Sequence record: PP488543.1
Length of the DNA: 64,000 bases
Origin: Escherichia phage BP9
Direction: 5' to 3' (one strand)
A program made the translations under genes and the position numbers. The notes beneath the pieces were generated by a model. It had not been told where the DNA came from. It made no database searches and was given only the letters and a program-made list of their open reading frames with translations. Of this stretch, positions 26,878 to 63,825 are shown piece after piece (positions within the stretch are counted from its first letter, which is position 1; each line of letters begins with the position of its first letter).

Positions 26878-27302
26878 TGAGCACACATCCTCGTCTAGTG
26901 GACTGGCAAGAAAGATTGTGGAAAGTGTTTGACGAAGAGGCCACCATACCTTTTGAATGGGGATTCCACGATTGTTGCACCTTTGCAGCTAAGTGTGTTG
27001 ATGCCCAATACGGAACAGATTTTCTTTCTAACTTCGAAGGAACGTATAAAACAGAGTTGGAAAGCAAAAGATGGTGCATGCTCCGTTTCAAAACCACACA
27101 CCTGCCTACTATTTTTGATCTCTTTATGACTCGGCTGGATACTCCTAAACAGGTTCAGCGTGGAGATATTGTCATTTTCGAAGGTCTGAACGGCCTCACC
27201 GCTGGTGTGTTCTGGAACAACCAGATTTGGGCGAAAGGTGATAAAGGGGTCTTTATGTTCGATATGAAAGATTCTATCGTTGTTGATGTCTGGAGGTATT
27301 AA
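26877..27302 (+). CDS. hypothetical tail assembly protein (gpK-like position), Cys/His motif HDCC
   Basis: ATG 26877 with SD GGGAGG, TAATG coupling (track start 26865). Confidence 0.35.
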   Translation: MSTHPRLVDWQERLWKVFDEEATIPFEWGFHDCCTFAAKCVDAQYGTDFLSNFEGTYKTELESKRWCMLRFKTTHLPTIFDLFMTRLDTPKQVQRGDIVIFEGLNGLTAGVFWNNQIWAKGDKGVFMFDMKDSIVVDVWRY

Positions 27303-30300
27303 TGCCAATTGCAATGATTGATAACATCGTTGCTTCTGCAAGATCTTCAAGTTATGACTGGAACGCATCCAAGGCAGCTCTGGCTGACAGCCTGAACACT
27401 GTTACCACCAGAACTCTGGATAAGATTTTTGAGGGTAACAAATCTTACAGAAGTCAGCAAGATAGACAAAAGCTTCTCAGATCTTCTGCTGCACCCTGCT
27501 CTGTAGTGTATGGAAAGACACGCACATCTGGATTGCTTGCGTTTTTGGAGCAGGATAGAGACAAAACCCTCCATTGTGCTATTGTTCTTGCCAATCACCC
27601 TCTGGAAGGTATAGAAGATATACTTATCGATGGTAATCCTATTTCCTCGTATGGAGATTTGGTATCGTGGGAGTTACATAACGACAGAAAAACGGCTGAT
27701 CCTTTCATGGGGACACACTGCCCATCGTGGTCACCAGACATGATAGGTAGAGGGATCAGTTGGCTACGTGCCAGCTTCAAGTTCGACCCTAACAAGTTTC
27801 CTTTTGGGTTGCCAAACGTTACACTCGTTAAGGTTGGTAAAAAATGCTATGATCCTCGTATCAGTAAAGAGGTGTACACCAATAACGCATCCTTGGTGAT
27901 CCTGGACTATTTAAGAACGTACCTTAAATGTCCTGACGAAACCATCAACTGGGAGTCCTTTAAGGAGGCTGCCAACATATGCGACGAGGCGGTAAAAAAC
28001 GCTGACGGAACCAGTGAGCGACGTTACACCATTAACGGTGAGTTTGACATGGATGAGGCCCCAGCAAGTATTATGGCAGAAATGCTGAAAGCTTGCGGTG
28101 CAGACCTTAGTTATGTTGCTGGTAAGTATGGTTTGCTGGTTGGTGCATACTATGGTCCGGCAACAATGACATTGAGTGAGGACTGTGTCTGTGGTGAGGT
28201 TAAGATCTATCCGGAAGCCTCATTTGACAAAAGATCTAACACAATAACTGGCAGATTCACTAGTCCGACCAAAGGGTATTCTGAAACAGATTTCCCATCA
28301 GTGTTTGTCCCAGAGTGGATAGAGAAGGATGGAGAAAGAAAGATAATCGATATAGACTATCGCTTTGTTACCAGTCCTTATCAAGCTCAACGTGTTTCTG
28401 CAATCTTCTTAAGACGTGCTAGAGCTGGCAGGATTATTGAAGTCACCTGCAATATGCGAGGTTTTAAATTTAAGCCTGGCCGTTACGTTACAATGAATCT
28501 CCCAAGTATTGGTATAGTAGGCCAAGAAATGAGGGTTCTTGAATGGGAGTTCACCAAAAAGGGTGGTGTCAAGGTAAAACTTCGTCAAGATGCTAAAGAG
28601 TGGAATGATGCCACAGGGCAACTTCCGGATTCTGGTGATGTAGATATTCCGATATCTCCATCTGGTGTAGCTCAACCGCAAAACTTCAGATACTCCGTCC
28701 TCCAAGCTGGGGAAATAACTCACGGTGTTCTGGCTTGGGACAACGTTGGGACTTACGCTCAAAATATTGTGCAGGTAAGAAAGAACGGAGAGATTGTTTG
28801 GACAGCACAGACAGTTGAGCAGTTTGTCCGAGTAGAAGGCTTGACCAAAGGGTCATACACAGCAACCGTGGTTGCAACATCTTATAAAGGTGGTGTATCT
28901 CCAGAAGCGTACTGCGAGTTTAACATTCAGGCACCTGAAGCTCCTGTTTCTGTAGAGGTTAAGCAGGGATACTTTGCTATCACCTTGATTCCACACAGCA
29001 GGGATTTAGCAAGTGTAAGCACCCAGTATGACTTTTGGACATCTGGTATGACAAGGTTGCCCGACACCAGCGATGCAACCGTTACTTCAAACGCCACCCG
29101 TATGGGTGTTGGTTCAACTTGGACATCCGAAGGTCTGCAGAACGATAAGGTTTATTATTGGTATATTCGAACCACAAACGCTTTTGGTAGCTCTCAGTTT
29201 GTAGAGTGTGCTGCACGCTGCTATACCTCCATTGAGGATTTGATGCCTCAGATAGATGCTGAATTCAAAAAGACAGAAACTTATAAAGAGTTGATGAGCA
29301 CTTTGGATTCCTCTATTGAAGAGGTTGAAAATCGTGTCACAGAACTTAACAGGTACATGGATGGTAGAGTTGACGAGGCTTTTGACCACATGGAAGGTGA
29401 GTTCTCTAGAGTAGACAAGCTGTATGCTCAGTTGGGAGATAGGGTTGGAATATTCATCCAAGAAACCCACGACAACTTCCAGGACGTTAATGGAACGCTT
29501 ACCACTCTAGATCAGAAACTGGTAGCCACTCAGAACAAGTTTGCAGATGATCTTTCTAAAGAAAGTGGCAAGCTTGCTTCTCTAATCCAGACCACTAACA
29601 AAGCTACAACCGATCTGTTAAATCAGAAAACTGAAGCTTTGGACGAGAAGATTGTTTCAACCAGGGGTGAGTTGGAAGATGCTTTAGCGCAGGAAAGCTC
29701 TGAGCTGAACTCCCTGATTGTATCAACCAATAAAACGACTACAGATCTCCTTAATCGGAAAACCGAGGCTTTAGACAATAAGCTGACGGCAACGAAAGGT
29801 GAGTTGACCAACAATCTGCAGAATGAGAGTGCTAAACTATCGTCCTTGATTGAGTCAACCAACAAATCCACCACTGATCTTCTTAATAAGAAAACAGAGG
29901 CGTTGGATGAAAAACTGGTTGCTGCACAGGGCGAGTTGACTGAGCAGATCGGAGATGTTGAAAAAGGCTATCTGGCTGGTGATAAGAGCCTAGAGGGCAA
30001 GTTGAATACTCAAAGATCTGAGTTGGATGCGAGCATTCTGAGCACTAACCAGGCCACTGTGGACTTGCTGAACAGAACTTCTGAGACTCTTGACCAGAAG
30101 ATTAGCCAGACCAACGCCACAGTGTCCAAAAACTACACCACGCTTGATGGTAAGATAAACACCGCCAAGTCTGATCTTAATACGTTGATTTCTACCACCA
30201 ACAAGGCCACAACTGACCTGTTGAATCAGAAAACGGCAGCTTTGACTGAGCAGTTAACCACTGCTAAAGGGCAGATTACAACCAACACCAATAATATTAC

Positions 30301-31447
30301 TGGGTTGGACAATAAGCTGACTCAGACGAAGAAAGACTTGTCTGCGAATATTTCTGAAACTAATAACGCCACTGTTGATCTGATTAACGGCACAGCGTCA
30401 GCTATTCGTCAAGAACTTGCTGTTGCTAAGCAGGAGATCATTGATGGTGTTGGCGATGTGTCCGAGATCAGGGCTGCAGTAGCTACAACAGCTAAGGCTG
30501 TGACCGACTTAGAGGGTAAAGTAAATGCTCAGTGGGGTACAAAAATACAGGTAGACTCCGCAGGGAATAAATATGTTGCAGGTATCCAGTTGGGGATGGA
30601 AGGGTCTGGGGGCCAAGTTCAATCCTACTTCATGGTTAGTGCAAACAATTTTGCGGTATACAATCCTGGCAATGGAACAGCAACCCTTGCTTTCGCAATC
30701 AAGAACAACCAAGCGTTCTTGAAAGACGCTTTTATAGAGAATGGCACGATCTCCTCTGCCAAGATCGCACAAGAAATTTCGTCAAACAACTACGATGGCA
30801 ACGGGTACCATAAATACGGTTGGTATATTAACAAGAACGGGCACGCCCAATTTATGGATGTGTGGGTGAAAGGCAACATCAACGCCAGTTCTGGTAACTT
30901 CACAGGGGCAGTTAACGCCACTAGTGGTACCTTCCGTGGGGATGTTTATGCCAATAATGGTAGCTTTAGAGGCACCATAGATGCAACCGGAGGTACCTTC
31001 CGTGGTCGTGTAGAAGCTTCTGTTATCCGTGCCAACCAGTTCGAAGGTGCAATTGTTGCACACAGGACTTACGGGGATTGTGCTCCAGTATATAACTCTC
31101 AGCAAAGGGTTTGCCGTTGGAGGTGGAGATACGTAGATAACGTTTCAGGTCAGGGTAAGAACGTAACATTCTTCTTTAAACTGAACGGTACTCTTGCCAG
31201 CTCCCAACTGAATGCATGGATAGCTGGTCATCAGATCCTTGCTGGCAAGAAGTATTTTAACGACAACAACGGCATGTGTGCGGTAGGGATAACAGGTCTG
31301 GGTGAACAAACTATAGACATTGTTATCGAGATTTACACACCGTGGTCAACGTCGAGCGTGACAGGTGTCACAATCTCCTGTCCCACTGTGATAGTAAGTC
31401 GTTCAAACTCTAGCTTCCAGGGACCTTGGAACGAGTCTCACGACTAA
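27302..31447 (+). CDS. central tail fibre / host specificity protein (lambda gpJ-like) with inserted coiled-coil repeats
   Basis: 1381 aa; FN3-like segment and YVAGIQLGMEGSGG...FMVSANNFAVYNPGNG region parallel lambda J; 5-6 tandem TNKxTTDLLNxKTEALDxKL repeats. Confidence 0.75.
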   Translation: MPIAMIDNIVASARSSSYDWNASKAALADSLNTVTTRTLDKIFEGNKSYRSQQDRQKLLRSSAAPCSVVYGKTRTSGLLAFLEQDRDKTLHCAIVLANHPLEGIEDILIDGNPISSYGDLVSWELHNDRKTADPFMGTHCPSWSPDMIGRGISWLRASFKFDPNKFPFGLPNVTLVKVGKKCYDPRISKEVYTNNASLVILDYLRTYLKCPDETINWESFKEAANICDEAVKNADGTSERRYTINGEFDMDEAPASIMAEMLKACGADLSYVAGKYGLLVGAYYGPATMTLSEDCVCGEVKIYPEASFDKRSNTITGRFTSPTKGYSETDFPSVFVPEWIEKDGERKIIDIDYRFVTSPYQAQRVSAIFLRRARAGRIIEVTCNMRGFKFKPGRYVTMNLPSIGIVGQEMRVLEWEFTKKGGVKVKLRQDAKEWNDATGQLPDSGDVDIPISPSGVAQPQNFRYSVLQAGEITHGVLAWDNVGTYAQNIVQVRKNGEIVWTAQTVEQFVRVEGLTKGSYTATVVATSYKGGVSPEAYCEFNIQAPEAPVSVEVKQGYFAITLIPHSRDLASVSTQYDFWTSGMTRLPDTSDATVTSNATRMGVGSTWTSEGLQNDKVYYWYIRTTNAFGSSQFVECAARCYTSIEDLMPQIDAEFKKTETYKELMSTLDSSIEEVENRVTELNRYMDGRVDEAFDHMEGEFSRVDKLYAQLGDRVGIFIQETHDNFQDVNGTLTTLDQKLVATQNKFADDLSKESGKLASLIQTTNKATTDLLNQKTEALDEKIVSTRGELEDALAQESSELNSLIVSTNKTTTDLLNRKTEALDNKLTATKGELTNNLQNESAKLSSLIESTNKSTTDLLNKKTEALDEKLVAAQGELTEQIGDVEKGYLAGDKSLEGKLNTQRSELDASILSTNQATVDLLNRTSETLDQKISQTNATVSKNYTTLDGKINTAKSDLNTLISTTNKATTDLLNQKTAALTEQLTTAKGQITTNTNNITGLDNKLTQTKKDLSANISETNNATVDLINGTASAIRQELAVAKQEIIDGVGDVSEIRAAVATTAKAVTDLEGKVNAQWGTKIQVDSAGNKYVAGIQLGMEGSGGQVQSYFMVSANNFAVYNPGNGTATLAFAIKNNQAFLKDAFIENGTISSAKIAQEISSNNYDGNGYHKYGWYINKNGHAQFMDVWVKGNINASSGNFTGAVNATSGTFRGDVYANNGSFRGTIDATGGTFRGRVEASVIRANQFEGAIVAHRTYGDCAPVYNSQQRVCRWRWRYVDNVSGQGKNVTFFFKLNGTLASSQLNAWIAGHQILAGKKYFNDNNGMCAVGITGLGEQTIDIVIEIYTPWSTSSVTGVTISCPTVIVSRSNSSFQGPWNESHD
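29560..30440 (+). repeat. in-frame tandem coiled-coil repeats (about 37-40 aa units) inside J-like gene
   Basis: Protein-level repeats with synonymous divergence at DNA level. Confidence 0.7.
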
Positions 31448-31552: not shown

Positions 31553-33043
31553 GTGGCTAAGTATGGATTGACAGAGGCTGGTTTCGTTATACCAACCCTA
31601 AATGACCTAATCGTTGAAACTAAGCAAAGCCTGATCCGTGCTTTTGGCGAAAACTTCAACGTACAGAGTAACTCCGTTGCAGATAAGCTGACCACTATCT
31701 TCAACGAGCGAGAGTATCAACTTATTCTTATGGCAGCATCTGTATACGCATCACAGACGCTGTATGGGGCAGAAGGTATTTACCTAGATGAGCTTCTTGG
31801 AAGACAGGGTATTTACCGAAGAGGCCGTTCTAAATCATCAGGTACCTGCCAGTTGACAATCAACACAACTGTGCCGTACAATATGATTTATGATTCCAAA
31901 ACTTATACGCTGGACAGTGGCAACTTTGTTCTTAGCAACGATGTGCAAGTAGCAGGGAATCTTATTGCTCACAGAATAAATGCTCCAGACCTAAGGATTG
32001 GGAAATACAACTTCCAAATTACCAACCAGACAGATGGAAGTATCAAAACAAAAAGCCTGGTTTTAACAGATAAGTCTCTGGACTCTTCTGATTTGCCAAG
32101 CTTTTACGGAGAGATTAAGCAATTCATTGTCGATAATACAACCCTGTTGAACGACGATTTGATTCAGATCGATATGTTGACAGGGACGTTGTGGATAGGG
32201 TACAATTCAAATCTTGATCAAGTTGGACTTAATAGCAGAGTAGATTTCAGAGTATCCCCGATTGTAGGGGAAAGAACTATCACACTGGATGTTATCGCTA
32301 ACGAGGCTGGTGAGCTGTCAAGAGAAGCAGAAACCGTGACAACAATGTCGCCTACTCCTAGTGGATTTATCAAGCTTACCAACCGAGAAAGATTCAATGA
32401 GGGCAGGGATGTTGAGAAAGACTCAGAGTATCGCTTAAGAGCTTCCAGCACAAAACAGTTAACATCGAAGGCTACCCGTCCTGCAATCCTTAGCGCTGTA
32501 AGCGAGGTAAAAGGTGTTGAGAAAGTGAGAGTGTTCTCCAACAACACCGATAAAACTGATGCTAAAGGTATACCTCCTTACAAGTTCCAAGTGGTTGTGT
32601 TTGGTGGTGCAACGGAGGACATTTGCCAAGCACTTTACCAAACTATAGCCTGTACGAACAGGACTTATGGTAATATTTTCTACGATATCACTACATCTGA
32701 CGGTCAAACTGAAAGAATTTATTACTCCAGGGCAAATACCTACCGCCTAGATGTAAGAATTACCTATTCCGGCGCTGCGCTTTCCACAACCGAAAAAGAT
32801 GCCATTGTAGAGGCTCTTTTGCAGGTTGTTAACGGACTTGATGTTGCAGATACGTTGTACAATATCCAATTGGTCGGTGCTGCATCCGCTGCTGTGTCGA
32901 TAGGTAGATTTAATAGACTGGTAATTCAAGTTAAACCAGTAGGAGCTTCTGATGAAGCTTACACGACAAACGATATTGTTGCGAACATGACCGAGGTGTT
33001 TGACCTCGACGAAAGTAATATAACTTTCCAACAAACTATTTAA
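31553..33043 (+). CDS. putative baseplate wedge protein (Baseplate_J-like)
   Basis: 496 aa; N-terminus MAKYGLTEAGFVIPTLNDL resembles baseplate J family; GTG start with SD GGAGG. Confidence 0.5.
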   Translation: MAKYGLTEAGFVIPTLNDLIVETKQSLIRAFGENFNVQSNSVADKLTTIFNEREYQLILMAASVYASQTLYGAEGIYLDELLGRQGIYRRGRSKSSGTCQLTINTTVPYNMIYDSKTYTLDSGNFVLSNDVQVAGNLIAHRINAPDLRIGKYNFQITNQTDGSIKTKSLVLTDKSLDSSDLPSFYGEIKQFIVDNTTLLNDDLIQIDMLTGTLWIGYNSNLDQVGLNSRVDFRVSPIVGERTITLDVIANEAGELSREAETVTTMSPTPSGFIKLTNRERFNEGRDVEKDSEYRLRASSTKQLTSKATRPAILSAVSEVKGVEKVRVFSNNTDKTDAKGIPPYKFQVVVFGGATEDICQALYQTIACTNRTYGNIFYDITTSDGQTERIYYSRANTYRLDVRITYSGAALSTTEKDAIVEALLQVVNGLDVADTLYNIQLVGAASAAVSIGRFNRLVIQVKPVGASDEAYTTNDIVANMTEVFDLDESNITFQQTI

Positions 33044-33054
33044 GGCGGCGAGAT

Positions 33055-33741
33055 ATGGCAGAGATTAAGTCGGATGTTAACCACATCCACACTCTGCCAG
33101 ATTTTGTTCAGGGAGGTCTTGACTACCTACCTGGAGATTTTCTGGCTGAGAAGGTTAATTTAGTCACATTCTTAACCGTATACCTTAAAAGGTTGGAGGA
33201 TGTTGATAAGATGCTGGTAGGTTTGGCTGAAGGAAGATTGCTTAACAATGCCAGCGGAAGATACCTTGACGAAGTTGGTAATCAATTTGGTATTCTTAGG
33301 AATGGACTTTCAGATGCTGATTTTCGTGCCACACTAATTATTCAGCAGGCCGCAGCATCAAGGGGCGGGACTCGCGAAGATGTCATCTCCACCTTGCGAC
33401 AATTGTTCGGAAGAGACAATTTCGATACGTGGAAAGGAGACAACTTCAGGTTTGACATAAATATTAGAAAAACTTGCTTTGACATATTGCAGTCTATCGA
33501 TCAGATCTTAGATATGCTACCATTGCCTTGTCATTTGCGTCTTACAGAATCGCAAGGGCAAGCTTTTGGTTTTGAAGGGGACTCTACAGCTCTTGGCTTC
33601 GGATCGGTGTGGGAAGAAAACCAATTCGGAGTTGGTGGGCTGGCTACTTTGCTGTATGTTCCTGACGTAAGACCTGATTGGGACACCACAACCATTTATT
33701 GTGAAAGTATTACAGTAAACGCAACTAGACAGGAGGGTTAA
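33055..33741 (+). CDS. hypothetical baseplate protein (gpI-like position)
   Basis: 228 aa following J-like baseplate gene. Confidence 0.3.
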   Translation: MAEIKSDVNHIHTLPDFVQGGLDYLPGDFLAEKVNLVTFLTVYLKRLEDVDKMLVGLAEGRLLNNASGRYLDEVGNQFGILRNGLSDADFRATLIIQQAAASRGGTREDVISTLRQLFGRDNFDTWKGDNFRFDINIRKTCFDILQSIDQILDMLPLPCHLRLTESQGQAFGFEGDSTALGFGSVWEENQFGVGGLATLLYVPDVRPDWDTTTIYCESITVNATRQEG

Positions 33742-35813
33742 TGGCAACAGCTGTTTTTAAACCTTACCGTGATTACTCTACAATGGCTGCACAGTTTCAT
33801 TACCGAACAGTTCAGGATACTGCCGTTCCTGGTAGGGATTATAATCATGTTGAGGGCGATGTAACTATCCCAATTGGGGCAACCAGTATTGAAATCCCAG
33901 TGGAAATTGTTGACAAATTACCCAACAGGTTACCAAGAAGCTTCTTTATGGAGTTTTCATCAAAATCTCAAGGGGTGATGATTGGGACACAAAGGGCAAA
34001 ATGTACAATAGTTTCAGATGAGAATCTTGACAGGATATCTTGGGATACTGTTGAGGAGAGAATGTTTCACCCAAGATATTGGGTTACAACCACCCAGCAG
34101 ACTGAAAGTACCTGTATTGTTGCAGATGACAACTGTTGTATTAACCGTTTAGTGTCAAGAACATATGGGGGTATGGCTGGGTGCATTTGGGAAACAGTTG
34201 ACAAGTATGACCATTTCGGTATTGGGTTTGATGATCACTATGAGATGAGAAATACCAAGCTTTGGTTCAGAATGTCAATAACCAATGCCAGCAACTTCTC
34301 CACTCCTGAAAAGATGATTATGACTGTAGACCTTGTTGATGGCACAATCATCTATGTTCCTTTAGCTCAATATGCTGTCAGCATCTCAGAGGATAAGAAT
34401 GTTGCAGAAATTCATATTGATTTTGAGGACTGCGTCGGGATGGACCAGAACAACAACATGATGGGTGTTGATCCTCGGCAGGTGAGAAGGATTTTAATAC
34501 CGCTCATGCCTAAAGACTGGGTAAGTAATAGCACAGACCCGAGAACGGAAAATGTAGAGTGCGAGTTGCGCTTAGACCTGCTTCAGCCAGACACAGGTTG
34601 GAAAATGATGCAACTTAACAATATTCAGGTTAAAGAGCACGACGTTGGGATCTGCACTGCATATGACGATATGTGGAACGTATCCCCTTTAAGGGTGTTG
34701 AACAATATCAAGCGTCTGGGCTATACCGGAACCATAAACCATTATGTTGGTATGAGTCATTATTATGACTACACGTGGTCAGGAACCCAATGGTCTATAA
34801 ACAGAACAGGGGCGCTAAACGCTGCAGCTTATAAATGGCATGATGATTTTATGTACAATGCCAAACGACATAACTTCGACGTTATGCAGTCTGTAAGTTT
34901 TGAGCTTTACAGCGATGCCTGCCCGTTGGAATGGACCCAAAGAGACTGGAACGATAACTACGCTAAAACAGGGTATACACCTTGTAGCTACCTCCTGTCT
35001 CCAACCATTGAAGAGGGTATGAATTTCCTTACTGCAGTATTTAAGAATTTTGCATCAGCCGCTATGAGAAACAACCTGCCAGTGATTATGCAGGTTGGTG
35101 AACCGTGGTGGTGGTACAATACCGATACTCGTAGACCTTGTATTTATGATTACCCTACAAAACAGGCGTTTTATGATGAGACAGGCGAGTATGCATTAGA
35201 TATTGGGACTATTGACGATCCTAAAACTGGCGGTGTTTACGATAAGTATGTAGCATTTTGTCGTGGTAAGCTTGGCGCTCGTATTGCGGCTATTTCAAAG
35301 GCAATAAAGGCACACGCTGCATCAGCTCAGATGACAGCTCTGCTGTTTTTCCCAACCATTATGGAAACCGAGCTTACGCAAAAGCTTAACCTTGCTGACC
35401 AATATAAAAAGGAAGCAGGTGCTCTTGATTTCTTCTGCACCGAGTGCTACGATTGGGTGATGCAGGGAGGTATTGAAAAGGCAAAAGAGTCTGTAAACAT
35501 ACCTATCGTTAAGTTAGGTTGGCAACCGTCTGAAATACAATACCTTGCAGGGTTCGTTCCTAGCAAAGAGCTTGCTCCGGTATATGGCTACGACCCAACC
35601 AGGAATTACCAAGAATTCTTATGGAGATGTATCTGCGGAAACATGGCAACTATAGAGTATAGATACCCTGAGGTAAAACAGTATGTGTGGGCATACCCGC
35701 AAGTAATGTCTGACAGCATTACTGTTACCGCTAGAGATTCTACCGTGCTTCATATGGGGCAGGTTGCTCTGAAAGGGTATGTAGAGGATGTTGTCCCGCC
35801 AGACTTCTCATAA
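33741..35813 (+). CDS. large baseplate/fibre-associated protein with N-terminal Calx-beta-like segment
   Basis: 690 aa; GRDYNHVEGDVTIPIGATSIEIPVEIVD resembles Calx-beta motif; Trp-rich C-terminal domain. Confidence 0.3.
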   Translation: MATAVFKPYRDYSTMAAQFHYRTVQDTAVPGRDYNHVEGDVTIPIGATSIEIPVEIVDKLPNRLPRSFFMEFSSKSQGVMIGTQRAKCTIVSDENLDRISWDTVEERMFHPRYWVTTTQQTESTCIVADDNCCINRLVSRTYGGMAGCIWETVDKYDHFGIGFDDHYEMRNTKLWFRMSITNASNFSTPEKMIMTVDLVDGTIIYVPLAQYAVSISEDKNVAEIHIDFEDCVGMDQNNNMMGVDPRQVRRILIPLMPKDWVSNSTDPRTENVECELRLDLLQPDTGWKMMQLNNIQVKEHDVGICTAYDDMWNVSPLRVLNNIKRLGYTGTINHYVGMSHYYDYTWSGTQWSINRTGALNAAAYKWHDDFMYNAKRHNFDVMQSVSFELYSDACPLEWTQRDWNDNYAKTGYTPCSYLLSPTIEEGMNFLTAVFKNFASAAMRNNLPVIMQVGEPWWWYNTDTRRPCIYDYPTKQAFYDETGEYALDIGTIDDPKTGGVYDKYVAFCRGKLGARIAAISKAIKAHAASAQMTALLFFPTIMETELTQKLNLADQYKKEAGALDFFCTECYDWVMQGGIEKAKESVNIPIVKLGWQPSEIQYLAGFVPSKELAPVYGYDPTRNYQEFLWRCICGNMATIEYRYPEVKQYVWAYPQVMSDSITVTARDSTVLHMGQVALKGYVEDVVPPDFS

Positions 35814-35825
35814 TCAGGAGATAAA

Positions 35826-36866
35826 ATGTCAAAACCTAGTTTTCCATTAGAGATTTGGGCAGAGGAGGATCAGGTTCTGCCTAACACCCACAGACAGAAC
35901 AGGCTACGCCCGATTGATGATTTGTGGAGAAAAGGTTGGGATCTTGGTCAAAAGCCCTCATGTGAAGAACTTAACTATATTTTCAATATGCTCGGAACTT
36001 GGGCAAAATACATTGCTGACGAGCAGATCCCCGCTCAAGAAGGCCGTTATCTGGTACGTGATAATAACTTGAGTGATCTTTTGAACATCCCTGTTGCCCG
36101 TAGAAACCTTGGGATTATTACCAAGGAAGAGGCAGACGCCAGGTATGTAAAAGTTACAGGTGATACAATGACAGGCCCGTTGGGTTTGCAACGTATCAAC
36201 TTTAAAGCTGCCGAGACAGATAAGGCTTGGATAGAGACAACTATTGGCCCAGATAAGACAACTCTCGACTTCGGGTTAAGTGATAATATTGGGTCGTTTG
36301 ATGATGGTGGTACATCTACAGTAGATGCGTTTCGTTGGAGATTCCAGCCAACTCAGCCGGATATTAATCCAGAGTTCACTTTGATGTACCTTAACGCGAT
36401 CACGGCGAACCGTGCGCTGTTGAAAGTGGTAGGCAATGTTGAAGTTGTCGATAACATGAGGTGCAATAACCTTACTATCAGCAATACAGCAACATTCACC
36501 AACTGTAATGTGGCTAGTCAGTTGACGGCCGGGTCAGTATATGTTAATGGTGGTGCAAGTTGTGACAGCATGGTTGTAAGAAGTCAGCACTGTGTTGTCG
36601 GTAACAGAAATGTGGTTCGCTCTGTGAACGGAGTGACGGCTAACGGTAACGGTGATGTAACGATCACTATCCCGCAGACAGGTGTGCAAGACATCAGAAT
36701 CGGTGCAAGACTTGTTGACGGCGTTTCTGAATCTCCAATTCGCAACGGCTACGTTGTCACAGGCTGGCATTTCGGTGACAAAAAAGAGATGCGTGGTTCA
36801 ACCTACTGGGCAGGACCTTTACAAAAACTTGTAAATGGTCAATGGATCACTGTTAATTATGCATAG
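35826..36866 (+). CDS. tail fibre protein (P2 gpH-like) copy 1
   Basis: 346 aa; conserved N-terminus (PLEIWAEED...KGWDLGQKP) and C-terminal tip QKLVNGQWITVNYA; followed by Tfa chaperone. Confidence 0.7.
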   Translation: MSKPSFPLEIWAEEDQVLPNTHRQNRLRPIDDLWRKGWDLGQKPSCEELNYIFNMLGTWAKYIADEQIPAQEGRYLVRDNNLSDLLNIPVARRNLGIITKEEADARYVKVTGDTMTGPLGLQRINFKAAETDKAWIETTIGPDKTTLDFGLSDNIGSFDDGGTSTVDAFRWRFQPTQPDINPEFTLMYLNAITANRALLKVVGNVEVVDNMRCNNLTISNTATFTNCNVASQLTAGSVYVNGGASCDSMVVRSQHCVVGNRNVVRSVNGVTANGNGDVTITIPQTGVQDIRIGARLVDGVSESPIRNGYVVTGWHFGDKKEMRGSTYWAGPLQKLVNGQWITVNYA

Positions 36867-36880
36867 ATCGGAGGACTAGC

Positions 36881-37465
36881 ATGAAAATACTTCAAGAGTT
36901 TAAACTTTACCAACCGGGATCTGGCGAATACCACGCCAACAAGGAAACCAAAGAGCTGACCCCTCAAGAGGTTGAGGATTACACCGCATACACTGGGTAT
37001 TTTTTACGTAATGATGATGGCGATTGGTATGTGCAGTCACGAACATTACGACAAGAAAATCCGGGTTGTATCTTCCTACTTGTTGACGAGAAGGGAATTC
37101 TTAAGACATCTACAGAAGAACCTGATGCCTTATGGCCTGCTCCAGGTCTTCGTGTGGTTATCGCCAAAAAAGAAGAGGTACCAGAAAACATTATGCTTCA
37201 CCACGACGCTTTGCGTTTAGTTGGTGATGAATTTGTCACAGATAATGAATTCTTTGTTCAACAGGCAGAGGGTGTCATAGAGACAGAACTTGCTTGGGCT
37301 ACTGCTAGAATTGGTGCCTATCAAGACATGATTGACCTTGAATATGATCTTACTGATGACCAGAAACGTAACATCAGGGATTTGAAAATGTACAGGGTAA
37401 AACTTCTTGAAATAGATACATCTAAAGCCCCTGACATTTTCTTCCCGGAGCGACCTACCCTCTAA
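36881..37465 (+). CDS. tail fibre assembly chaperone (Tfa / gpG-like)
   Basis: 194 aa; C-terminal ...AWATARIGAYQDMIDLEYDLT...LKMYRVKLLEID...FFPERP typical of Tfa family. Confidence 0.75.
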   Translation: MKILQEFKLYQPGSGEYHANKETKELTPQEVEDYTAYTGYFLRNDDGDWYVQSRTLRQENPGCIFLLVDEKGILKTSTEEPDALWPAPGLRVVIAKKEEVPENIMLHHDALRLVGDEFVTDNEFFVQQAEGVIETELAWATARIGAYQDMIDLEYDLTDDQKRNIRDLKMYRVKLLEIDTSKAPDIFFPERPTL

Positions 37466-37476
37466 GAGGAGGTGTT

Positions 37477-37791
37477 GTGGAGTTGGATTTGGCGGCATTG
37501 TACGGTATCTGCATGGGTACCGTTGTCCCGATCTGTGTATGGGCTTTCAACCAGTGGCACACCAAATGGAAAGGCATTTCCAAGAGGCTGGATGAACTGG
37601 AGAAAGACCTCATCTTAGTGAAAAACAGTATGGTTACAAAAGATAAACTTGATTCCGTTATCGAGACCCGGTTAAGCAAGCTAGAGGCCGATATTAACGA
37701 CCTTAAGCAGGATGTCAGGACAGATGTCTCCGGCATCAGAGCTGATGTACAAAAGATTTTGCACATGCTTGTAGAGCATAGTAAAAGGTAA
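37477..37791 (+). CDS. small membrane-anchored coiled-coil protein of unknown function
   Basis: 104 aa; N-terminal hydrophobic helix LAALYGICMGTVVPICVWAF then heptad-rich region; strong SD AAGAGGAGG; last gene before terminator. Confidence 0.5.
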   Translation: MELDLAALYGICMGTVVPICVWAFNQWHTKWKGISKRLDELEKDLILVKNSMVTKDKLDSVIETRLSKLEADINDLKQDVRTDVSGIRADVQKILHMLVEHSKR

Positions 37792-37800
37792 ACAAAGGTC

Positions 37801-37830
37801 AGAACGGAAAGGACTCCGTTCTTGCATTTT
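37801..37830 (+). terminator. intrinsic terminator
   Basis: AGAACGG-AAAGGACT-CCGTTCT then TGCATTTTGTT. Confidence 0.7.
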
Positions 37831-37850
37831 GTTCTCTAAAGTGTTAAAAT
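37822..37850 (+). promoter_or_regulatory. sigma70-type promoter (TTGCAT, 17 bp, TAAAAT)
   Basis: -35 37822-37827 overlaps terminator tail; -10 37845-37850. Confidence 0.55.
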
Positions 37851-37877
37851 AGTTCTAAGGAATTTTCTCAGGAGAAC

Positions 37878-38924
37878 GTGATGACTAAACCAGTTATCCC
37901 TCTTGATATTTGGGCCAATCAGGATGTTGTGCTTGAAAATACGGGAGAGTTGAATAAATCTCAACCAAAAAAAGAAGAGAGATTGAAAGGTTGGGATATG
38001 ACACAAAGAATGGCATGTGAAGTTGTTAACTTTGAACTTCACATGCTTTCTGCGTGGTTGAAGCATTTAACAGAAGATGTTGTCCCTGGATGGGATAATA
38101 GATTCTTAAGGGTCACTAATAATCTGGCAGACGTTCCAGACAAAGCTGCTGCACGTCAAGTTCTCAATGTATACTCGCCTGAAGAAATGGATGACCTTTA
38201 TGTTGACAAGACTGGAGACACAATGATCCAGACTCAAACTTTAGGTCTTCAAAGGATCGAGTTTGCATCTGCGTCAACAGACAATGCGGCGATATACACC
38301 ACCATAACTCCAGACAAGACGATGATGGATTTCTGGATTATGGACAACATCGGTGGTGCTGACGGCACAGACCTTGATGACCCTTCTCACCAAATAGACG
38401 GTTTCCGTTGGAGATTTCAACCTTCTGGTGGGCAGCCTGTGTTTTCGGCTATGAAGCTCAATGCTATAACTGCCAACCGTGCAAGACTGGCTATCCAAGG
38501 AAATCTTGAATGCAATGATGCAAAAAGCTCCTCTGCAAATGCTAATGCGGTAACGATACCAAGAGCCACTGTTAATGGGCAACAATCCTGCGGCAGCGCT
38601 CAAATAGGTGGAAGAGTAGATTGTAACGATAAAACCGCCAGGGGTCAATATGCAACAGTTGGTGGAAGAAACGTGGTCCGCAGGGTAAATGGTAGTAGCG
38701 CAGATAGCAGTGGTAACCTTACTATTCCTATGCCTAGTAGGGGTGTTGAAGATGTAAGGATAGCAAACCGTTTCAGAACCACCTATAGAGAATCAAGAGT
38801 ATACCCTGGGCATGTAATGTGCTCCGGCAATTACGCCTATAAACACCCGTATCAGGGCGACTATTGGACTGGAGCTATTCAAAAATTTGTAAACGGTCAA
38901 TGGATCACCATATCTTATGCTTAA
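37878..38924 (+). CDS. tail fibre protein (P2 gpH-like) copy 2
   Basis: 348 aa; paralog of 35826 ORF (PLDIWANQD...KGWDMTQRM; tip QKFVNGQWITISYA); start GTG 37878 or ATG 37881 after SD AGGAGA. Confidence 0.7.
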   Translation: MMTKPVIPLDIWANQDVVLENTGELNKSQPKKEERLKGWDMTQRMACEVVNFELHMLSAWLKHLTEDVVPGWDNRFLRVTNNLADVPDKAAARQVLNVYSPEEMDDLYVDKTGDTMIQTQTLGLQRIEFASASTDNAAIYTTITPDKTMMDFWIMDNIGGADGTDLDDPSHQIDGFRWRFQPSGGQPVFSAMKLNAITANRARLAIQGNLECNDAKSSSANANAVTIPRATVNGQQSCGSAQIGGRVDCNDKTARGQYATVGGRNVVRRVNGSSADSSGNLTIPMPSRGVEDVRIANRFRTTYRESRVYPGHVMCSGNYAYKHPYQGDYWTGAIQKFVNGQWITISYA

Positions 38925-38933
38925 AGAGGGTAA

Positions 38934-39200
38934 ATGAAATTAACTCAGTTTTTATGGGGACTGGTTGCAGCATCTGATGACCCTACAAAAGTGTCCCAAT
39001 CTAAGCTATGGTCAAACATAGGCATGGCAGTGATGACTGGGGTGTTTATTCATATGGGGTACAATGATACGCTTCCTGAATGGTATGCGTGGATATACGC
39101 ACCTTCGGTAGCCTGCCCCCAGCTTATTAGCAAATTCATCTCGCTCCGGTGGGGTTGCCAGCACCCTGACCACGTTAAAAACGAAGAGCAAAAAGCTTAA
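38934..39200 (+). CDS. small membrane protein of unknown function
   Basis: 88 aa; hydrophobic segment NIGMAVMTGVFIHMGY; directly downstream of fibre copy 2. Confidence 0.4.
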   Translation: MKLTQFLWGLVAASDDPTKVSQSKLWSNIGMAVMTGVFIHMGYNDTLPEWYAWIYAPSVACPQLISKFISLRWGCQHPDHVKNEEQKA

Positions 39201-39209
39201 GGAGAAATC

Positions 39210-40955
39210 ATGGCGCAAGACATGACAAGCTTCGAGCAGGCGGTAGATCAAGTAATTGTTGATTCTGAACGTTTGCACTTGATTGTCAACGGTAACGCTG
39301 TGGATGAAGTTGTCGTAGAGGATGGGACCACTATCCCTACGGTACGAAAAGCCATGCTTGACACCCTTTATTTTAAAACGCCACCAATCCCTTGGGCGTA
39401 TGGTGCATCCACAACAGTTTTTAACCAGTTGTATGAGTTTAAAGGGGATACAGGCACTCAGTGGTGGTACGCCCCAGCAGCATCAAAATCTAACCCAGTT
39501 AGGATGCCAGCAGATCCTTCACAATCTCCGAACTGGAGATTATATACAGATTCTGCAGTAATGGCAAAATACTACGCAAAACTTAACAGCCCAAGGTTCG
39601 AAGGTGATCCGAGAGCACCTACACCTCCAATGGACGATAAGTCCGAGTCTATAGCAAACACAGAGTTTGTTGTTGACTATGTGGATAGTATATTCAAAGC
39701 CATGGAGGGGATGAAAGTAACTGTAGGGTCTTTGGTAGTGAAAGGTCTTACAGAACTGGCTAACACCATAGTTGGTGGCACCCTTACCATACACGGGCCT
39801 GTTAATGGGGCTGATTCTACTGCACGCTTCAGGAACCTAATCCTTACTGCAAATACTTCTACACTAACTTTTGCGTGGAGCGATCCTAAGCATGCAGACT
39901 GGAGAAGCACAGAGCTGCAACCTCATGAAGTGGTCACCCACAGAGTTATAGCTGACACTATAACTTCTGGGAAACCAGTGGCTAATAACAACGATGTGCA
40001 TTTTGATGGTCTAGGTAATAACTTTTTTGACTACGTGTACATTCGTGGTAATGCCATGAAGGCAGCAACCGAACCGACATTGCAGGTTGATGGGACCACC
40101 AGGGTTAAGAACCTTGAGGTGACAGGCACCGTTACAGGGATAACCTACTCTGTGGATGGCACCATGATCTACCCTAGCTATATTGAAAGCACAGGGGATG
40201 CACTGATCAATGGGGATTTAGAGGTTGGCGGATCTATAGTCATTCGTGGCACAGCATCTGTTCAGAACATATCTTTAAATACTCTGAGGGTGAATGAGCG
40301 TGCCACTTTTGAAGGGGAAGGGCTTACTGCCAACAAAGGTGTGATTACCGAGCTGACAGCCACCACTCTAACTGCAACAACTGCAAACTCTGAAAACTGC
40401 AACGTTACCCGCAACTTGCAGGTAAATGGAGATGTTAGTTTAAACGCAGCAGGTACGGGTACCACCTCTGTTCACAACCTTGAAATATCTGGCACGGTGA
40501 CTGGGTGGCTGCCAGACTTCTCTAATGTCAACTTTGTCTGCAACGGCATTAACTCTAGTGGTAAGATAACCACCTCTCAAGAAATTGAGGCTGGTAAAAC
40601 TATTACTGCCCCTACTTTCCACGCAGGGAAGGTAGATTTTGATCTAGAGGAGGTTGACGCATCAGGTGGGACATGGACACCTAACGGGCAGGCCAGCATG
40701 TATGTTGTCCACGCGAAAGGGGATTTTACAATAGGCCAATGGCCTGGAACATCGGCTGAAGATAAACCTTACCCGTTTACTGCAATCATCTATGTCATTC
40801 AAGATGCTGTAGGCCACAACGTGACTTTGCACGATAAATATGCCATACTGTCGGCTACCCCTGTCATTAACAACAAAGCCAACAGCGTTACCTTGCTACA
40901 ATTGACATATTGTGGTGTTGGTGATATTGTGGATGTGGTTATTGCACAACGTTAA
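39210..40955 (+). CDS. tail fibre / tailspike-like protein
   Basis: 581 aa; repetitive TGTVTG-type beta-rich segments; SD AAGGAGA. Confidence 0.45.
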   Translation: MAQDMTSFEQAVDQVIVDSERLHLIVNGNAVDEVVVEDGTTIPTVRKAMLDTLYFKTPPIPWAYGASTTVFNQLYEFKGDTGTQWWYAPAASKSNPVRMPADPSQSPNWRLYTDSAVMAKYYAKLNSPRFEGDPRAPTPPMDDKSESIANTEFVVDYVDSIFKAMEGMKVTVGSLVVKGLTELANTIVGGTLTIHGPVNGADSTARFRNLILTANTSTLTFAWSDPKHADWRSTELQPHEVVTHRVIADTITSGKPVANNNDVHFDGLGNNFFDYVYIRGNAMKAATEPTLQVDGTTRVKNLEVTGTVTGITYSVDGTMIYPSYIESTGDALINGDLEVGGSIVIRGTASVQNISLNTLRVNERATFEGEGLTANKGVITELTATTLTATTANSENCNVTRNLQVNGDVSLNAAGTGTTSVHNLEISGTVTGWLPDFSNVNFVCNGINSSGKITTSQEIEAGKTITAPTFHAGKVDFDLEEVDASGGTWTPNGQASMYVVHAKGDFTIGQWPGTSAEDKPYPFTAIIYVIQDAVGHNVTLHDKYAILSATPVINNKANSVTLLQLTYCGVGDIVDVVIAQR

Positions 40956-40963
40956 TATATCTG

Positions 40964-40990
40964 ACCGCTCCTGACGGGGCGGTTTTCTTA
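40964..40990 (+). terminator. hairpin, probable terminator
   Basis: ACCGCTCC-TGAC-GGGGCGGT then TTTCTT. Confidence 0.45.
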
Positions 40991-41003
40991 TCTGGAGAAC
41001 ACA

Positions 41004-44000
41004 ATGCTTCCAATCCCTTTGCTAAAACTTGGTCGTCATTTCCTCGATAAGAGGGGTGGAGTTAAGGAACTTGCTGTTCTGTCATACCCAATAGACAACA
41101 GTGACGGTACAAGCACTACAGTAGCCTATGTAAATAGTTTAGCTATACTTTTTGACGACGGTCAACTTAATATTACAGGGTACAACAGGTTCGGGGAGTG
41201 TAGGACTGGGGATCTTGACACGATAAACTACCCTAATGAGGCTGCCTGGAACGTTGATCATGTGTGGAGAGCAGATCGTGCGTTTGTGATCCGAACTTTT
41301 GATAATCAGTTTTTCTACATCGGCTGTACTGCAGGGCTTATTGGGTCTGATGCTGCAGGCGGTAATGATGTTTGTGTAAGGGAGTGGACACCTCTTCCTG
41401 AACAAATCGTTAAAGGATTGCACCTTGACACCCACCCAGAGCGCCTTGTTGAGGTGATGGGTGGTATTAACAACACCGTCTGGGTTATGGCAGAGGCAGA
41501 AGGTACTGGCATTTTACACCTGTACGGATCTGGTAACAACACCTACGGATCTTTGCATGTGGATAAAAACCAGCATGCAACTCCTGTAAAGATTGGTGAA
41601 ACATCGGAAAATCCTGAAACAGGTCCTTGGAAAAACCCAAGCATCAACTGTGAGGTGCATGATAACTCTGTTATTTTCGGCGGTCCTAAAGGTTTCTGGA
41701 TTGCGGGATACGACTTTCTGAGAAACAACAGTAGAAACGACCTTGTTTGGCCTCCTGCTCAGATTACTCGTGACGATTTGAGAGGTATTCCTGCAGATGA
41801 GGAGTGGAAAGGGTTCATGTGTGGTCCGAACGGGGCAGTGGTTGTAACACAAAGAATGCACAGACCTGATGACCAGCAACTTGTTAACGTATTCTACGGG
41901 CAAAACATCTGGGGAGATGATACATGGCGTTCCTTAAATCTTACCTACACCCATGAAGTAATAATGGCGCGTGGGTACGGAACAAGCGGCATTTTCTTCA
42001 ATAATGGCACTAAGCAGTACCGTGGATTCTCTCGCAACTTATGTAATGATATTGGTGCACAGTCTGCAAACAATAGCCCTAGGGATAATTTTATCCACTA
42101 TCAAGCCCTTGCTACAGCTAAATATGTTGAGCAAAGACTGCCAGTCAGCTGGACAGAGAGTGTTTATTTCCAAGGCATTCACAGAGAAGGTTTTTTAGGA
42201 ACTTTTACCGTTGTTAATGGTAAACTTTGGTGGTCAGGTATCCCAAGGGGAAGTTTTGCAGGCTCTAATAACCTGTTTGGCGGCAGACTTAATAGCCAAG
42301 GGTTCACGGAGGTCCCTGAGAATTGGTATAAAAATGTCCCAGTAGATAGTTGGGGTGTTGATGATATTTTCGACGTTAACGGTGTTAGCAGCGTTAGCAA
42401 TATCTACATTGGCGACACGGTCAAGATGAAATTGAAGCCTCAGCCAGAGGGGGCTACGTTCATTATTGACAAGATTGAACTGGTAAATGCTGCAGGTACG
42501 GTTGTTACAGATGCAAATTACCAATTCTCTACCAACTGGAACCACGGCGGGGCCAACGAAGTTATTGTTACCCAGTATAACAGGAATGTTAACAGACGTG
42601 GACTGTACTCCGTAAAAATAACCTATCATGACAAACATGGCACAGGCAGGACCCACACAACAAGGACTTTGAACTGGAACACTATTGTCCCTGCGTATCC
42701 GTCTGATGGTAAATGGCATACTGTCGGTAGAAACAAACAGTTCCATGTTAATGACACTGTATACTTTGGACTAAATGCGGCCCAGCCTGCAGTAGAAGGG
42801 GATACATCGTATATGGTCAGACTCCATAGAATGGATGCTGGGTCAGTAACCTATGATGTTACCCAAGAGATTTATAATCAGCGACGAAATACCTATGATA
42901 ACTTGGTGCAGACACAGGCCCTATGGGAGTTCAACCCAAACGGAAGGGGTGGTAAAATGTTGCAGGTCAACGAACAAAACGGGACATCGTTGACTGTTCA
43001 CGAACACCCAAACCCTTGGCCTGATCCTGGAAAACCTAACTCTGGTGCTCGTACACTAAAAATTGTCAGCCATGACGTAGGATATTTCGGAATACGCTGG
43101 GAAGCCACAGTAAGATATGCCGACGGGACAACAAACAATATAGGGATTACCCTTGGTGGCACCAGTGAGAATAACTCGCTGAAAATTGCCTACACTCCTA
43201 GAGGTATTTCTATTGATAATATGGATGTTGTTCGCAACGGTTACGGGGATGTGAACATCAAAGTTACTCTTGGTGAACATCTTGGCGGGGAAAGGATCAT
43301 CATGTATGCCTTTGATCATGACCCTCGCACCAACGGAACATATGCAGACCAGGCGTGGAGCTACCTGATAAGCGCACCTGAGCCAAATACCAAAGAATTC
43401 TACTACGGTATGAAGCGAGATGTGTGCAAGAAAACAGGGACACATGACTGGATTGCGATCTGTGTTAAAGATGAACGTACCGCTTGGAACGAGCCTGTTA
43501 ACAGATGGTTCATAGGTATTCCCACCCGAAGTGATAAATACGTTGAAGAATACATTGTGTGCATGGGCGGCACCAACCTTAATATGTGTTGGAACGGGGA
43601 TGCAAACAACAAATACTCTGATTATGACTATATGCGGGACTATTCTTGCAATCAGTGGTTTAACCAACCTGGATATGCTGATCGACAGGCAAGAGTGAAT
43701 CCTGCAATCTTTACAGATACGCAGGTTTTCTTGACAAAACAGGCCAACGAGGTTCAGACCTTCAAGAACAAATACGACCCTAACAAGTGGTTTTATAACT
43801 GTTATGGCGCATTTTTCTGGGGTCCTGGGGAACTACCTGGCGGGGGATCTTGCTTCGAGTCTGCAACTTACGCCAGTGACTACATCATGGGGCAGGTTAA
43901 GAAGTATAAGATAATCCCCGGCCCTGAAACTTTGGGCAATGCCGTTGACCCTTATATCGTCATGACTGCGCTGAGATCAAACATGGATGGGACATCCATG

Positions 44001-60133: not shown

Positions 60134-60984
60134 ATGATTTTCATCTACGAACATTTCAAAACCCGTAAAGAAGCAAGAGACCGCCGTGCAGAACTTGAGA
60201 AGAAGGGTTTCATATGTGCCATTGAGAAAGGCGACACAACCTGGACACTGGCAGTTGGTGCCCCAGAGTTGTTCGATCCTGACCGTGACAGCGTCTGCTA
60301 CACCCGTGAAGATTTTGAAACCCGCGAAGAGGCCCGTTTATTTCGATACGGTCTGGAAGATAACGGTAAGTACGCCATGATCTTAGATTTAGGCGAAGGG
60401 TCCGTTAAACGTTGGGGCGTGGTATACCCACTGTGTGTTGTTCATGGTGTGGGGTTCACTGGGGTAGCAATCAAGTCAGAAGAACCTTTAGTAGAAGTCA
60501 AAGATCCGGTGCTGGAGGTGGTGAGCAGTGTATCTCAGCAACAGACTCGAAGTATTGAGCCTTTGGTAGTTATTTGTGGGGAACTCCTCCAGATCACCTG
60601 CAACGAAGGCATTTTTGAAATTCGCCGCAGTGAAAGTGAGGAAGTTTACCAGAAAGTCTTCGACCATATCTCTGTCCAGAAATATGACGAGGCAATTGGT
60701 GAAATCCTTGTCTGGTTGGAACGCAAGAATGAGTTCACTACACTTGCAGACAACCTGATCATGAAAGATGGTAAGCTCTACTACTACGGTGTAGAGATGC
60801 GATCCACCATTGCAAAGAAAATTGAGAAAGATTATGCAGACGGAACACTAGATGACCGCTATGTGAAATTCCTAGTTCGCCTGCTACGCAATCCTTCTGC
60901 AAAATCTGTAAACATGCTCTACGATTTTATGCAGGCCAACGATATCCAGCTTGCAGAAGATGGTCGAATCATTTGCTACAAAGG
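60134..60984 (+). pseudogene. rIIB: rIIB-like gene, 3'-truncated at junction with IS2 remnant
   Basis: Matches T4 rIIB through ...[25 protein letters not shown]; ORF then runs into IS2 sequence to a stop at 61033. Confidence 0.75.
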
Positions 60985-61271
60985 AGTTCATTTTCCATCG
61001 TTTTTTTGCCGAGCAGGAGCTGGAGTTCTTTAATCTGCTTCATGGCAGCAGCAAGTTCAGAGGCAGGAACGACCTGTTCTCCTGCGGCCACAGCAGTAAG
61101 ACTTCCCTCCTGGTATTGCTTGCGCCAGAGAAATAACTGGCTGGCTGCCACACCGTGTTGCCGGGCAACAAGGGAGACCGTCATTCCCGGTTCAAAGCTC
61201 TGCTGAACAATAGCGATCTTTTCCTGTGTAGTACGCCGTCTGCGTTTCTCCGGTCCTAAGACATCAATCAT
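60985..61271 (-). pseudogene. insC: IS2 insC (orfA) 3'-truncated
   Basis: First 97 or so codons of IS2 OrfA present; remainder of IS2 absent. Confidence 0.8.
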
Positions 61272-61362
61272 CTGCTCTCCAATGACTAGTCTAAAAACTA
61301 GTATTAAGACTATCACTTATTTAAGTGATATTGGTTGTCTGGAGATTCAGGGGGCCAGTCTA
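60985..61362 (-). mobile_element. IS2 left-end remnant (terminal inverted repeat plus 5' part of insC/orfA)
   Basis: Minus strand reads TAGACTGGCCCCCTGAATCTCCAGACAACC... and encodes [56 protein letters not shown]...; match stops after ...KTMENELL near 60985. Confidence 0.85.
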
Positions 61363-61384
61363 TATTCCACGCTGTACTGCAGTG

Positions 61385-61681: not shown

Positions 61682-61856
61682 ATTTTGGCAACTAATAAAC
61701 CGCCTTACATTTATGGTTGTTTATGAATATTGTCATCAAAAACCAATGAATTGATAGTTATTTCAGAATATCTGATGGTTAAACATATATGGTTTGTTGT
61801 GTGTGGTGAGCTGTAAGTGAAGAGGTTCGATATGTACAAAAAAAATGGTGTGTGCT

Positions 61857-63654: not shown

Positions 63655-63825
63655 CATGGCATTTTTCATGGTACTGATTTCCGGTGACGGTATATAAAAC
63701 GGTACGGTAAAAATTGAGATTTGGAAAAATGTTATCACTCAATTGGTTATGGTATCCGTAAATAATTGAGTGGGAATGATTAACAGCTAACTCATAGCAA
63801 ATCATTCCTATTCAGATGCTAACTC

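Follow-up and report, generated by a model that had tools for sequence, protein, structure and literature searches.

The tail fibre locus of Escherichia phage BP9 contains two related short tail fibre genes and a single gene for a tail fibre assembly (Tfa) chaperone, an arrangement that raises the question of whether the two fibres are alternatives between which the phage switches, or permanent components of one and the same particle. The locus lies within a stretch of 64,000 nucleotides (nt) of sequence record PP488543.1, here called the window, and was studied with respect to homology, gene order, conservation and purifying selection. The answer, which we hold with high confidence, is that BP9 carries two paralogous short tail fibres of the rV5 type together with one Tfa chaperone, that the underlying duplication is old, and that both fibres are part of the same virion with no switching between them.

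Two homologous fibre genes in an rV5-like locus

A megablast search with positions 35000-40000 matched 116 phage records, of which 111 span 80% or more of the query, with identities of 95-99%. Nearly all of these are genomes of rV5-like Vequintavirus phages of E. coli. The window itself is that of an rV5-like Vequintavirus, an E. coli myophage, and its nucleotide identity is 97-99% to vB_EcoM_YN3, JES2013 and rV5. Genes were assigned by gene-by-gene comparison with rV5 (NC_011041) and with the curated BASEL phage JohannBauhin, and the locus matches rV5 gp36-gp27 throughout. The first short tail fibre gene, orthologue of rV5 gp33, lies on the plus strand at 35826-36866 and encodes 346 amino acids (aa), followed by the Tfa gene (rV5 gp32, 36881-37465, plus strand, 194 aa); the second, orthologue of rV5 gp30, occupies 37881-38924 on the same strand and encodes 347 aa. 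In rV5 the three genes stand in identical order, with amino acid identities of 99.7% (gp33), 99.5% (gp32) and 96.5% (gp30), so that only allelic differences separate the two phages; the gp30 allele of BP9 is closest to those of phages JEP1 and FV3, and its product is 99.7% identical to that of JEP1. As in rV5, gp33 comes after two baseplate wedge genes and immediately before Tfa, and gp30 is found two genes further downstream, past Tfa and gp31. The BASEL annotation likewise gives 'short tail fiber protein' twice, with 'tail fiber chaperone' between the two.

An earlier note on this DNA had proposed that the two open reading frames (ORFs) are homologous, and pairwise BLASTP bears this out, with 43% identity over 346/347 aa (E 7e-96). 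In addition, both match the 'tail fiber protein' profile phrog_4465 over its full length, positions 1-342 of 342 (E 9e-172 for the gp33-like and 3e-164 for the gp30-like protein), and both carry the common C-terminus ...VNGQWIT(V/I)(N/S)YA that had been noticed. The fibres do diverge, but to place the difference in the central region is imprecise: the best conserved block is central (residues 106-150, 60-67% identity), and the lowest identity is found at residues 205-245 (23%) and 291-330 (27-30%), the last 20 residues or so being again highly conserved. The second ORF is also real, but it starts at the ATG at 37881 and not at the GTG at 37878: a ribosome-binding site (AGGAGA) lies at 37870-37875 and the GTG reads GCG in rV5. 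As for the age of the pair, the longest DNA stretch common to both genes measures 63 nt at 78% identity and synonymous sites between them are saturated, which rules out a recent duplication or ongoing gene conversion.

Much of this picture has been published before. Kropinski et al. 2013 gave an identity of 42.3% between gp30 and gp33 and noted their resemblance to short tail fibres, detected gp30, gp32 and gp33 in rV5 virions by mass spectrometry, and suggested two lipopolysaccharide (LPS) chemotypes (PMC3606486). Maffei et al. 2021 described two paralogous short tail fibres with a chaperone, homologous to Mu GpS/GpU (PMC8594841). Paralogy, a lone chaperone and the proposal of two receptors are all on record, and the reading of the locus from its sequence is a correct rediscovery. 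What the present analysis adds is the ancestral versus derived order of gp33 and gp30, the remodelling of gp30, the selection acting on the genes and their distribution, and the absence of switching.

Ancestral and derived copy

The distribution of the fibre genes helps to order them. Two fibre loci are present in all of the approximately 115 Vequintavirus records, and one in the inspected records of Avunavirus, Seunavirus, Mydovirus, Certrevirus, Phapecoctavirus and Justusliebigvirus, the phAPEC8-like and phi92-like loci included. In the four single-fibre genera of the Vequintavirinae the genes follow each other as wedge, wedge, fibre, Tfa, a 104-aa protein, a 157-aa polytopic membrane protein, an 88-aa protein and a gp28-like fibre. 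In Vequintavirus, gp30 with the hairpin and promoter-like site described below takes the slot of the 157-aa gene, no homologue of which was found anywhere in the window.

Sequence comparison points in the same direction as position. Identity to the single-copy orthologues of the sister genera is 47-51% for gp33 and 37-43% for gp30. Of 36 N-terminal positions at which five single-fibre phages (phiTE to Av-05) do not vary, gp33 keeps 31 and gp30 keeps 24. Moreover, gp33 retains the distal motif GHVxTGWxFGxKKExRG, which the phi92-like fibre has too and whose GHVxTG core also occurs in Mu GpS. In gp30 the N-terminal PIDDLW has become PKKEER, residues 28-36 reading QPKKEERLK where gp33 has RPIDDLWRK, and the distal TGWxFGxKKExRG has become CSGNYAYKHPYQG; both changes are conserved in a second Vequintavirus lineage. 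Judged by position and by sequence, gp33 is the ancestral copy and gp30 a derived paralog specific to Vequintavirus.

The spacer in front of gp30

The earlier note had credited the second fibre gene with its own terminator and promoter, and candidates for both are found in the spacer between gp31 and gp30. A pattern scan located a terminator-like hairpin on the plus strand at 37801-37822 (-16 kcal/mol, z -3.2), with a weaker hairpin (-6 kcal/mol) at the equivalent place in the divergent Vequintavirus lineage, labelled L008. It is followed on the same strand by a putative promoter for fibre 2 (37822-37851), composed of TTGCAT, 17 nt and an extended -10 element TGnTAAAAT ending at 37850, and conserved in both rV5 and L008.

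The promoter-like site is not isolated. The motif TGKTAAAATA occurs five times in the window, at 8021, 11541, 25695, 31511 and 37842, against 0.47 copies expected; all copies lie between genes and on the plus strand, with a gene 25-45 nt downstream, each has a TTGACA-like hexamer 17 nt upstream, and the genes behind them are plus-strand structural genes. The five sites look like extended -10 promoters of the sigma-70 type. They match the 'late promoter' motif TggTAaAAtA described in rV5 (PMC3606486), and bear on how the late genes of rV5 are transcribed.

Origin and retention of gp30

Among 5.8 billion proteins, the best non-self match of gp30 is gp33, in a search that returned six proteins in all, and duplication within the lineage is therefore the simplest origin of gp30. 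Of the 'cassette duplication' that had been proposed earlier, the duplication stands, gp33 being the nearest relative and the sister genera single-copy; the cassette does not, as the fibre gene alone was duplicated, with no chaperone. A different history would have gp30 arrive by horizontal transfer from a related phage not yet sampled, as a moron that brought its promoter along and took over from the 157-aa gene. The hairpin and promoter-like site of gp30, its place in a slot where sister genera carry a different gene, and an identity to gp33 (44%) that barely exceeds that to the sister-genus orthologues all fit such an arrival, as does the 3' half of gp30, which is a mosaic patch among Vequintavirus genomes. 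Yet no donor closer than gp33 was found among the 5.8 billion proteins or in 50,697 phage records, and the ending ...QKxVNGQWITxxYA is common to both paralogs and not found in this exact form in the sister genera. We consider horizontal acquisition unlikely, and a duplication of gp33 within the lineage remains the preferred origin.

The mosaic patch deserves a description of its own. The 3' half of gp30 (38500-39000) shows about 10% DNA divergence from rV5, as opposed to 1-3% in gp33, Tfa and gp31, and its synonymous substitution rate (dS) is 0.305 versus 0.073, the changes being almost all synonymous. This pattern suggests that the distal part of gp30 is exchanged allelically among Vequintavirus genomes.

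Whatever its source, gp30 has been retained. In the divergent Vequintavirus lineage both fibres are intact, with identities of 87% (gp33) and 77% (gp30), the proportion of nonsynonymous differences (pN) being 0.09 and 0.15, respectively, and that of synonymous differences (pS) about 0.8 (0.82 for gp30). Relative to rV5, the ratio of nonsynonymous to synonymous substitution rates (dN/dS) is 0.03 for gp33 and 0.05 for gp30. On these substitution patterns, both copies are functional genes under strong purifying selection. It could be argued that gp30 is a spare copy, redundant or in decay, that does nothing of its own, since relatives with one fibre remain fully viable on the same host and gp30 has evolved faster than gp33 across lineages; but the gene is intact in all of the about 116 records, its dN/dS and its pN relative to pS are those just given, and its product was detected in virions (PMC3606486). 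A spare copy is, on balance, very improbable.

A fixed pair and not a switch

Two related fibre genes of the Mu GpS type, lying close together, call to mind the invertible cassettes of the Mu G or P1 C segment, in which recombination picks the fibre that is made, and the Mu system is indeed invertible. The likeness is superficial. An invertible cassette is laid out as opposite 3' segments served by one constant 5' segment, and the locus contains instead two complete ORFs on the plus strand, each with its own N-terminus, start codon and ribosome-binding site. The search for invertase or recombination sites that the earlier note had called for was negative: positions 33000-41500 yielded, at best, mismatched inverted repeats of 14-19 nt that do not flank the fibre genes. 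The curated annotation of a 97%-identical relative lists no recombinase in the corresponding 64 kb, and none was detected in a Pfam scan of ten unannotated mid-size ORFs, a scan that did not take in every small ORF of the window. Finally, the arrangement is identical in about 115 genomes. With inverted repeats around the genes and opposite orientation both lacking, and with no invertase in the relative's annotation or among the ten ORFs scanned, an invertible or otherwise recombining cassette is effectively ruled out for these co-directional complete genes, and we attach practically no probability to a switch. As far as the sequence allows one to judge, the gene pair is an old, fixed duplication.

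The chaperone and its small neighbours

The Tfa protein matches PF02413 (Caudo_TAP) with residues 121-192 (E 8e-12) and phrog_136 (E 2e-36). As the earlier note had stated, only the first fibre gene is followed by such a gene: a cognate PF02413 chaperone lies directly downstream of gp33 and not of gp30, where the next ORF encodes the 88-aa membrane protein gp29. No second Tfa was found by tblastn across the 64-kb window with a sister-genus Tfa as query. The small neighbours were considered as candidates for a hidden second chaperone and rejected, as gp31 (37477-37791, plus strand, 104 aa, N-terminal hydrophobic helix and coiled coil; phrog_5345, E 1e-48) and gp29 (38934-39200, plus strand; phrog_1322, E 3e-32) are membrane-type proteins. 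Nor are they specific to fibre 2, because they hold the same positions in single-fibre Avunavirus, Seunavirus, Mydovirus and Certrevirus. Specifically, gp31 comes after Tfa in all Vequintavirinae genera checked, with a homologue in Av-05 detected by tblastn (E 5e-17), and gp29 is kept after the fibre block in all of them, being 51% identical to its Av-05 homologue; a gp29 counterpart is absent from the phAPEC8-like and phi92-like loci.

Small membrane-type genes are a feature of these tail fibre modules in general. In the four single-fibre Vequintavirinae genera there are three of them inside the module, of 104 aa (a transmembrane helix and a coiled coil), 157 aa (polytopic) and 88 aa; Vequintavirus has lost the second of these, at the place now taken by gp30. 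The corresponding stretches lie at 37477-37791 and 38934-39200 of the window, and at 6138-7201, 6150-7219 and 6728-7805 of the comparison loci L003, L005 and L011, respectively.

With one Tfa gene for two fibres, we infer that gp32 most likely folds both. The main argument, an indirect one, is that one chaperone could serve both fibres because their last 20 residues are nearly invariant: in each paralog these residues are almost unchanged between the Vequintavirus lineages. Both fibres also retain a GRNVVRxVNG block, and the loops between this block and the last 20 or so residues have diverged. A parallel is offered by TfaMu, the chaperone of phage Mu. According to PMC9608196, a variable N-terminal domain of TfaMu binds the fibre tip, conserved C-terminal helices trimerise, and the protein remains bound to the fibre tip on the virion. 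The Pfam match of the Tfa of the window (residues 121-192) falls in the part that is conserved in TfaMu.

Fibre architecture and docking

Both proteins fit the short tail fibre family of the Vequintavirinae (phrog_4465, rV5 gp30/gp33, RBPseg class TC1), to judge from the full-length profile match and a phiTE-like anchor. The N-terminal 110 residues or so match the phiTE short tail fibre 9CUY (E 1.4e-19 for gp33 and 1.4e-8 for gp30), and the family profile matches 9cuy_c with E 3.5e-29. In phiTE, fibre residues 3-92 form the joint to the outer wedge (PMC11972413), and phi92 gp147, 'fibre III', is attached at the bottom of the wedge protein, pointing downward (PMC13450770); in both phages the short fibre binds the wedge periphery, with one site per wedge (PMC13450770, PMC11972413). 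At the other end of the molecule, the C-terminal domain of gp33 finds its match in residues 440-501 of Mu GpS (PDB 5YVQ; phmmer E 1.7e-6). A monomer AlphaFold model of the fibre had a mean predicted local distance difference test (pLDDT) score of 63 and a predicted template modelling (pTM) score of 0.33, and its only significant Foldseek match was 5yvq (E 4.4e-6); of this model only the local match to the Mu fibre is usable, its poor quality being attributable to the trimeric state expected of the fibre. The same Mu structure was not recovered by the family profile search of the PDB at E <= 0.1, though the phiTE match was strengthened in it. In the RBPseg study, short fibre density is seen on the baseplates of Bas49 and Bas54 at 7-9 Å, and a Mu-like C-terminus is noted, with Tfa likely needed (PMC12143355).

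These elements can be assembled into a working model. Both fibre genes would be expressed late, and both products enter the same virion, each presumably as a trimeric fibre of the Mu GpS type that attaches to the rim of the baseplate wedge by its N-terminal 90-110 residues and binds the LPS core by its C-terminal domain. The docking partner is probably the wedge protein of the rV5 gp36 type, by analogy with phiTE and phi92. Its gene lies on the plus strand at 31553-33043 (Baseplate_J, PF04865, E 4.5e-9; phrog_6; baseplate wedge subunit in the rV5 annotation), followed by that of a second baseplate wedge protein, rV5 gp35 (33055-33741, plus strand; phrog_4056, E 3e-103, and the rV5 annotation).

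For gp30 the place on the baseplate could be another one. It might dock away from the canonical wedge site, be it on a further fibre or on a different face of the wedge, or form heterotrimers with gp33: it has lost 12 of the 36 invariant N-terminal positions, PIDDLW included, with changes that are conserved in both Vequintavirus lineages, and phiTE and phi92 have a single short-fibre site per wedge. Nevertheless, its N-terminal domain is still homologous to the solved phiTE anchor, and the phi92-like and phAPEC8-like fibres, which bind the wedge, have diverged even more (20-21 of 36). We regard such a separate docking as rather improbable, and docking of both fibres on the wedge periphery as the preferred model.

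Receptor specificity

The earlier note had also suggested a duplication for alternative receptor specificity, and this is plausible, as the divergence is concentrated in the distal part of the protein. Conserved ends with diverged loops between them may provide a broadened or a second LPS-core specificity. In particular, the diverged anchor motif and distal loop of gp30 make a distinct docking mode or specificity possible. A more elaborate version, in which gp30 has a different docking or shares the six wedge sites in mixed occupancy, has a different LPS-core specificity and relies on the one shared Tfa, would make the baseplate bivalent for terminal receptors; we put it forward tentatively, as a possibility with clearly less than even chances.

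As to the receptor itself, phage LL12 requires LPS outer-core glucose I (PMC7229145). Maffei et al. observed little allelic variation and, following the LL12 genetics, proposed this glucose as the common terminal receptor (PMC8594841). For rV5-like phages the terminal receptor has been assigned to LPS outer-core glucose I only genetically.

A number of points weigh against parts of this picture. Maffei et al. hold that one terminal receptor may serve all Vequintavirinae, and relatives with a single fibre infect the same K-12 host (PMC8594841); with both of these in hand, the data do not call for a second specificity. Only gp33 gives a significant C-terminal match to Mu GpS, and the monomer model is poor; gp30 gave no direct significant match to Mu GpS and is linked to it only through its 43% identity to gp33. 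Cryo-electron microscopy at 7-9 Å cannot tell the paralogs apart. Likewise, the idea that gp32 is shared by the two fibres draws only on the conserved C-terminal residues. The matter has a practical side, because phages of the rV5 type are often considered for therapy and biocontrol of E. coli, O157:H7 included, and knowledge of the fibre roles would help in host-range engineering, even though it refines a known system and does not reveal a new one.

Other features of the window

Directly upstream of the first fibre gene lies the counterpart of rV5 gp34 (33741-35813), which combines the TIM-barrel and N-terminal domains of the Pfam 'non-contractile tail sheath protein' with a Calx-beta domain. 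It is a deacetylase fibre like N4 gp65, tied in the literature to the N4 glycan receptor. A counterpart is present in Av-05 and absent from the Seunavirus, Mydovirus and phiTE loci. Further upstream, a J-like central or lateral fibre protein (27302-31447) has 1381 aa, compared with 1279 aa in rV5 gp37, and contains about six tandem copies of a coiled-coil unit of about 45 aa (...STNKxTTDLLNxKTEALDxKL...); its gene is among those fibre genes that are known to vary allelically within the genus. On the downstream side, gene-by-gene comparison places the counterpart of rV5 gp28 at 39210-40955.

At the end of the window, homology to rV5-like genomes stops at about position 60994, inside rIIB, where the ORF 60134-61033 encodes 299 aa versus 401 aa. 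The remainder (60995-64000) opens with about 370 nt of multi-copy E. coli sequence, found in 7441 records at a median of 4 places per genome, which looks like an insertion sequence (IS) fragment, perhaps of the IS3-family OrfA type. From about 61362 it continues as E. coli prophage DNA of the phiV10/epsilon15 type, with an SGNH hydrolase, a holin, a GH19 endolysin (62546-63175) and a DUF2514 Rz-like gene (63172-63654). The junction between phage and prophage is either an assembly chimera through the repeat or an IS-mediated join. A separate matter of record keeping concerns 16-21 'Campylobacter phage' records (MG065635-MG065682, host given as Campylobacter jejuni) that are about 97% identical across the fibre locus; their host or name is probably mis-assigned.

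Comparison with known systems

Three known systems help to place the fibre pair of BP9. The first is T4 gp12, which has the same proposed role, that of a baseplate fibre acting on the LPS core for irreversible adsorption, and differs in needing gp57A rather than a Tfa. Similarity of the rV5 fibres to the T4 structure 1PDI was reported by HHpred with probabilities of 97-98% (PMC3606486); in our hands no match to T4 gp12 (1PDI/1H6W) was found by phmmer, profile search or Foldseek, and the HHpred-based similarity was thus not reproduced with these tools.

The second is phage Mu, whose GpS/GpU (TfaMu) pair resembles gp33 and gp32 in the C-terminal fibre domain, including GHVxTG...PxQKxxNGxW, and in the PF02413 chaperone directly downstream. 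In Mu, however, the S/U pairs are two alternatives on a segment that is inverted by the Gin invertase, and the N-terminal anchor of the fibre is unrelated to that of gp33 and gp30. BP9 has two full-length fibres in direct orientation and a single chaperone, and no invertase was found.

The third and, at the anchor, homologous case is that of phiTE (9CUY/9MJN) and of phi92 fibre III gp147, which likewise follow two wedge genes and precede Tfa. These phages differ from BP9 in having one short fibre gene each, and the phiTE fibre, with 554 aa, is built with a coiled coil and immunoglobulin-like domains and has been proposed to bind flagella.

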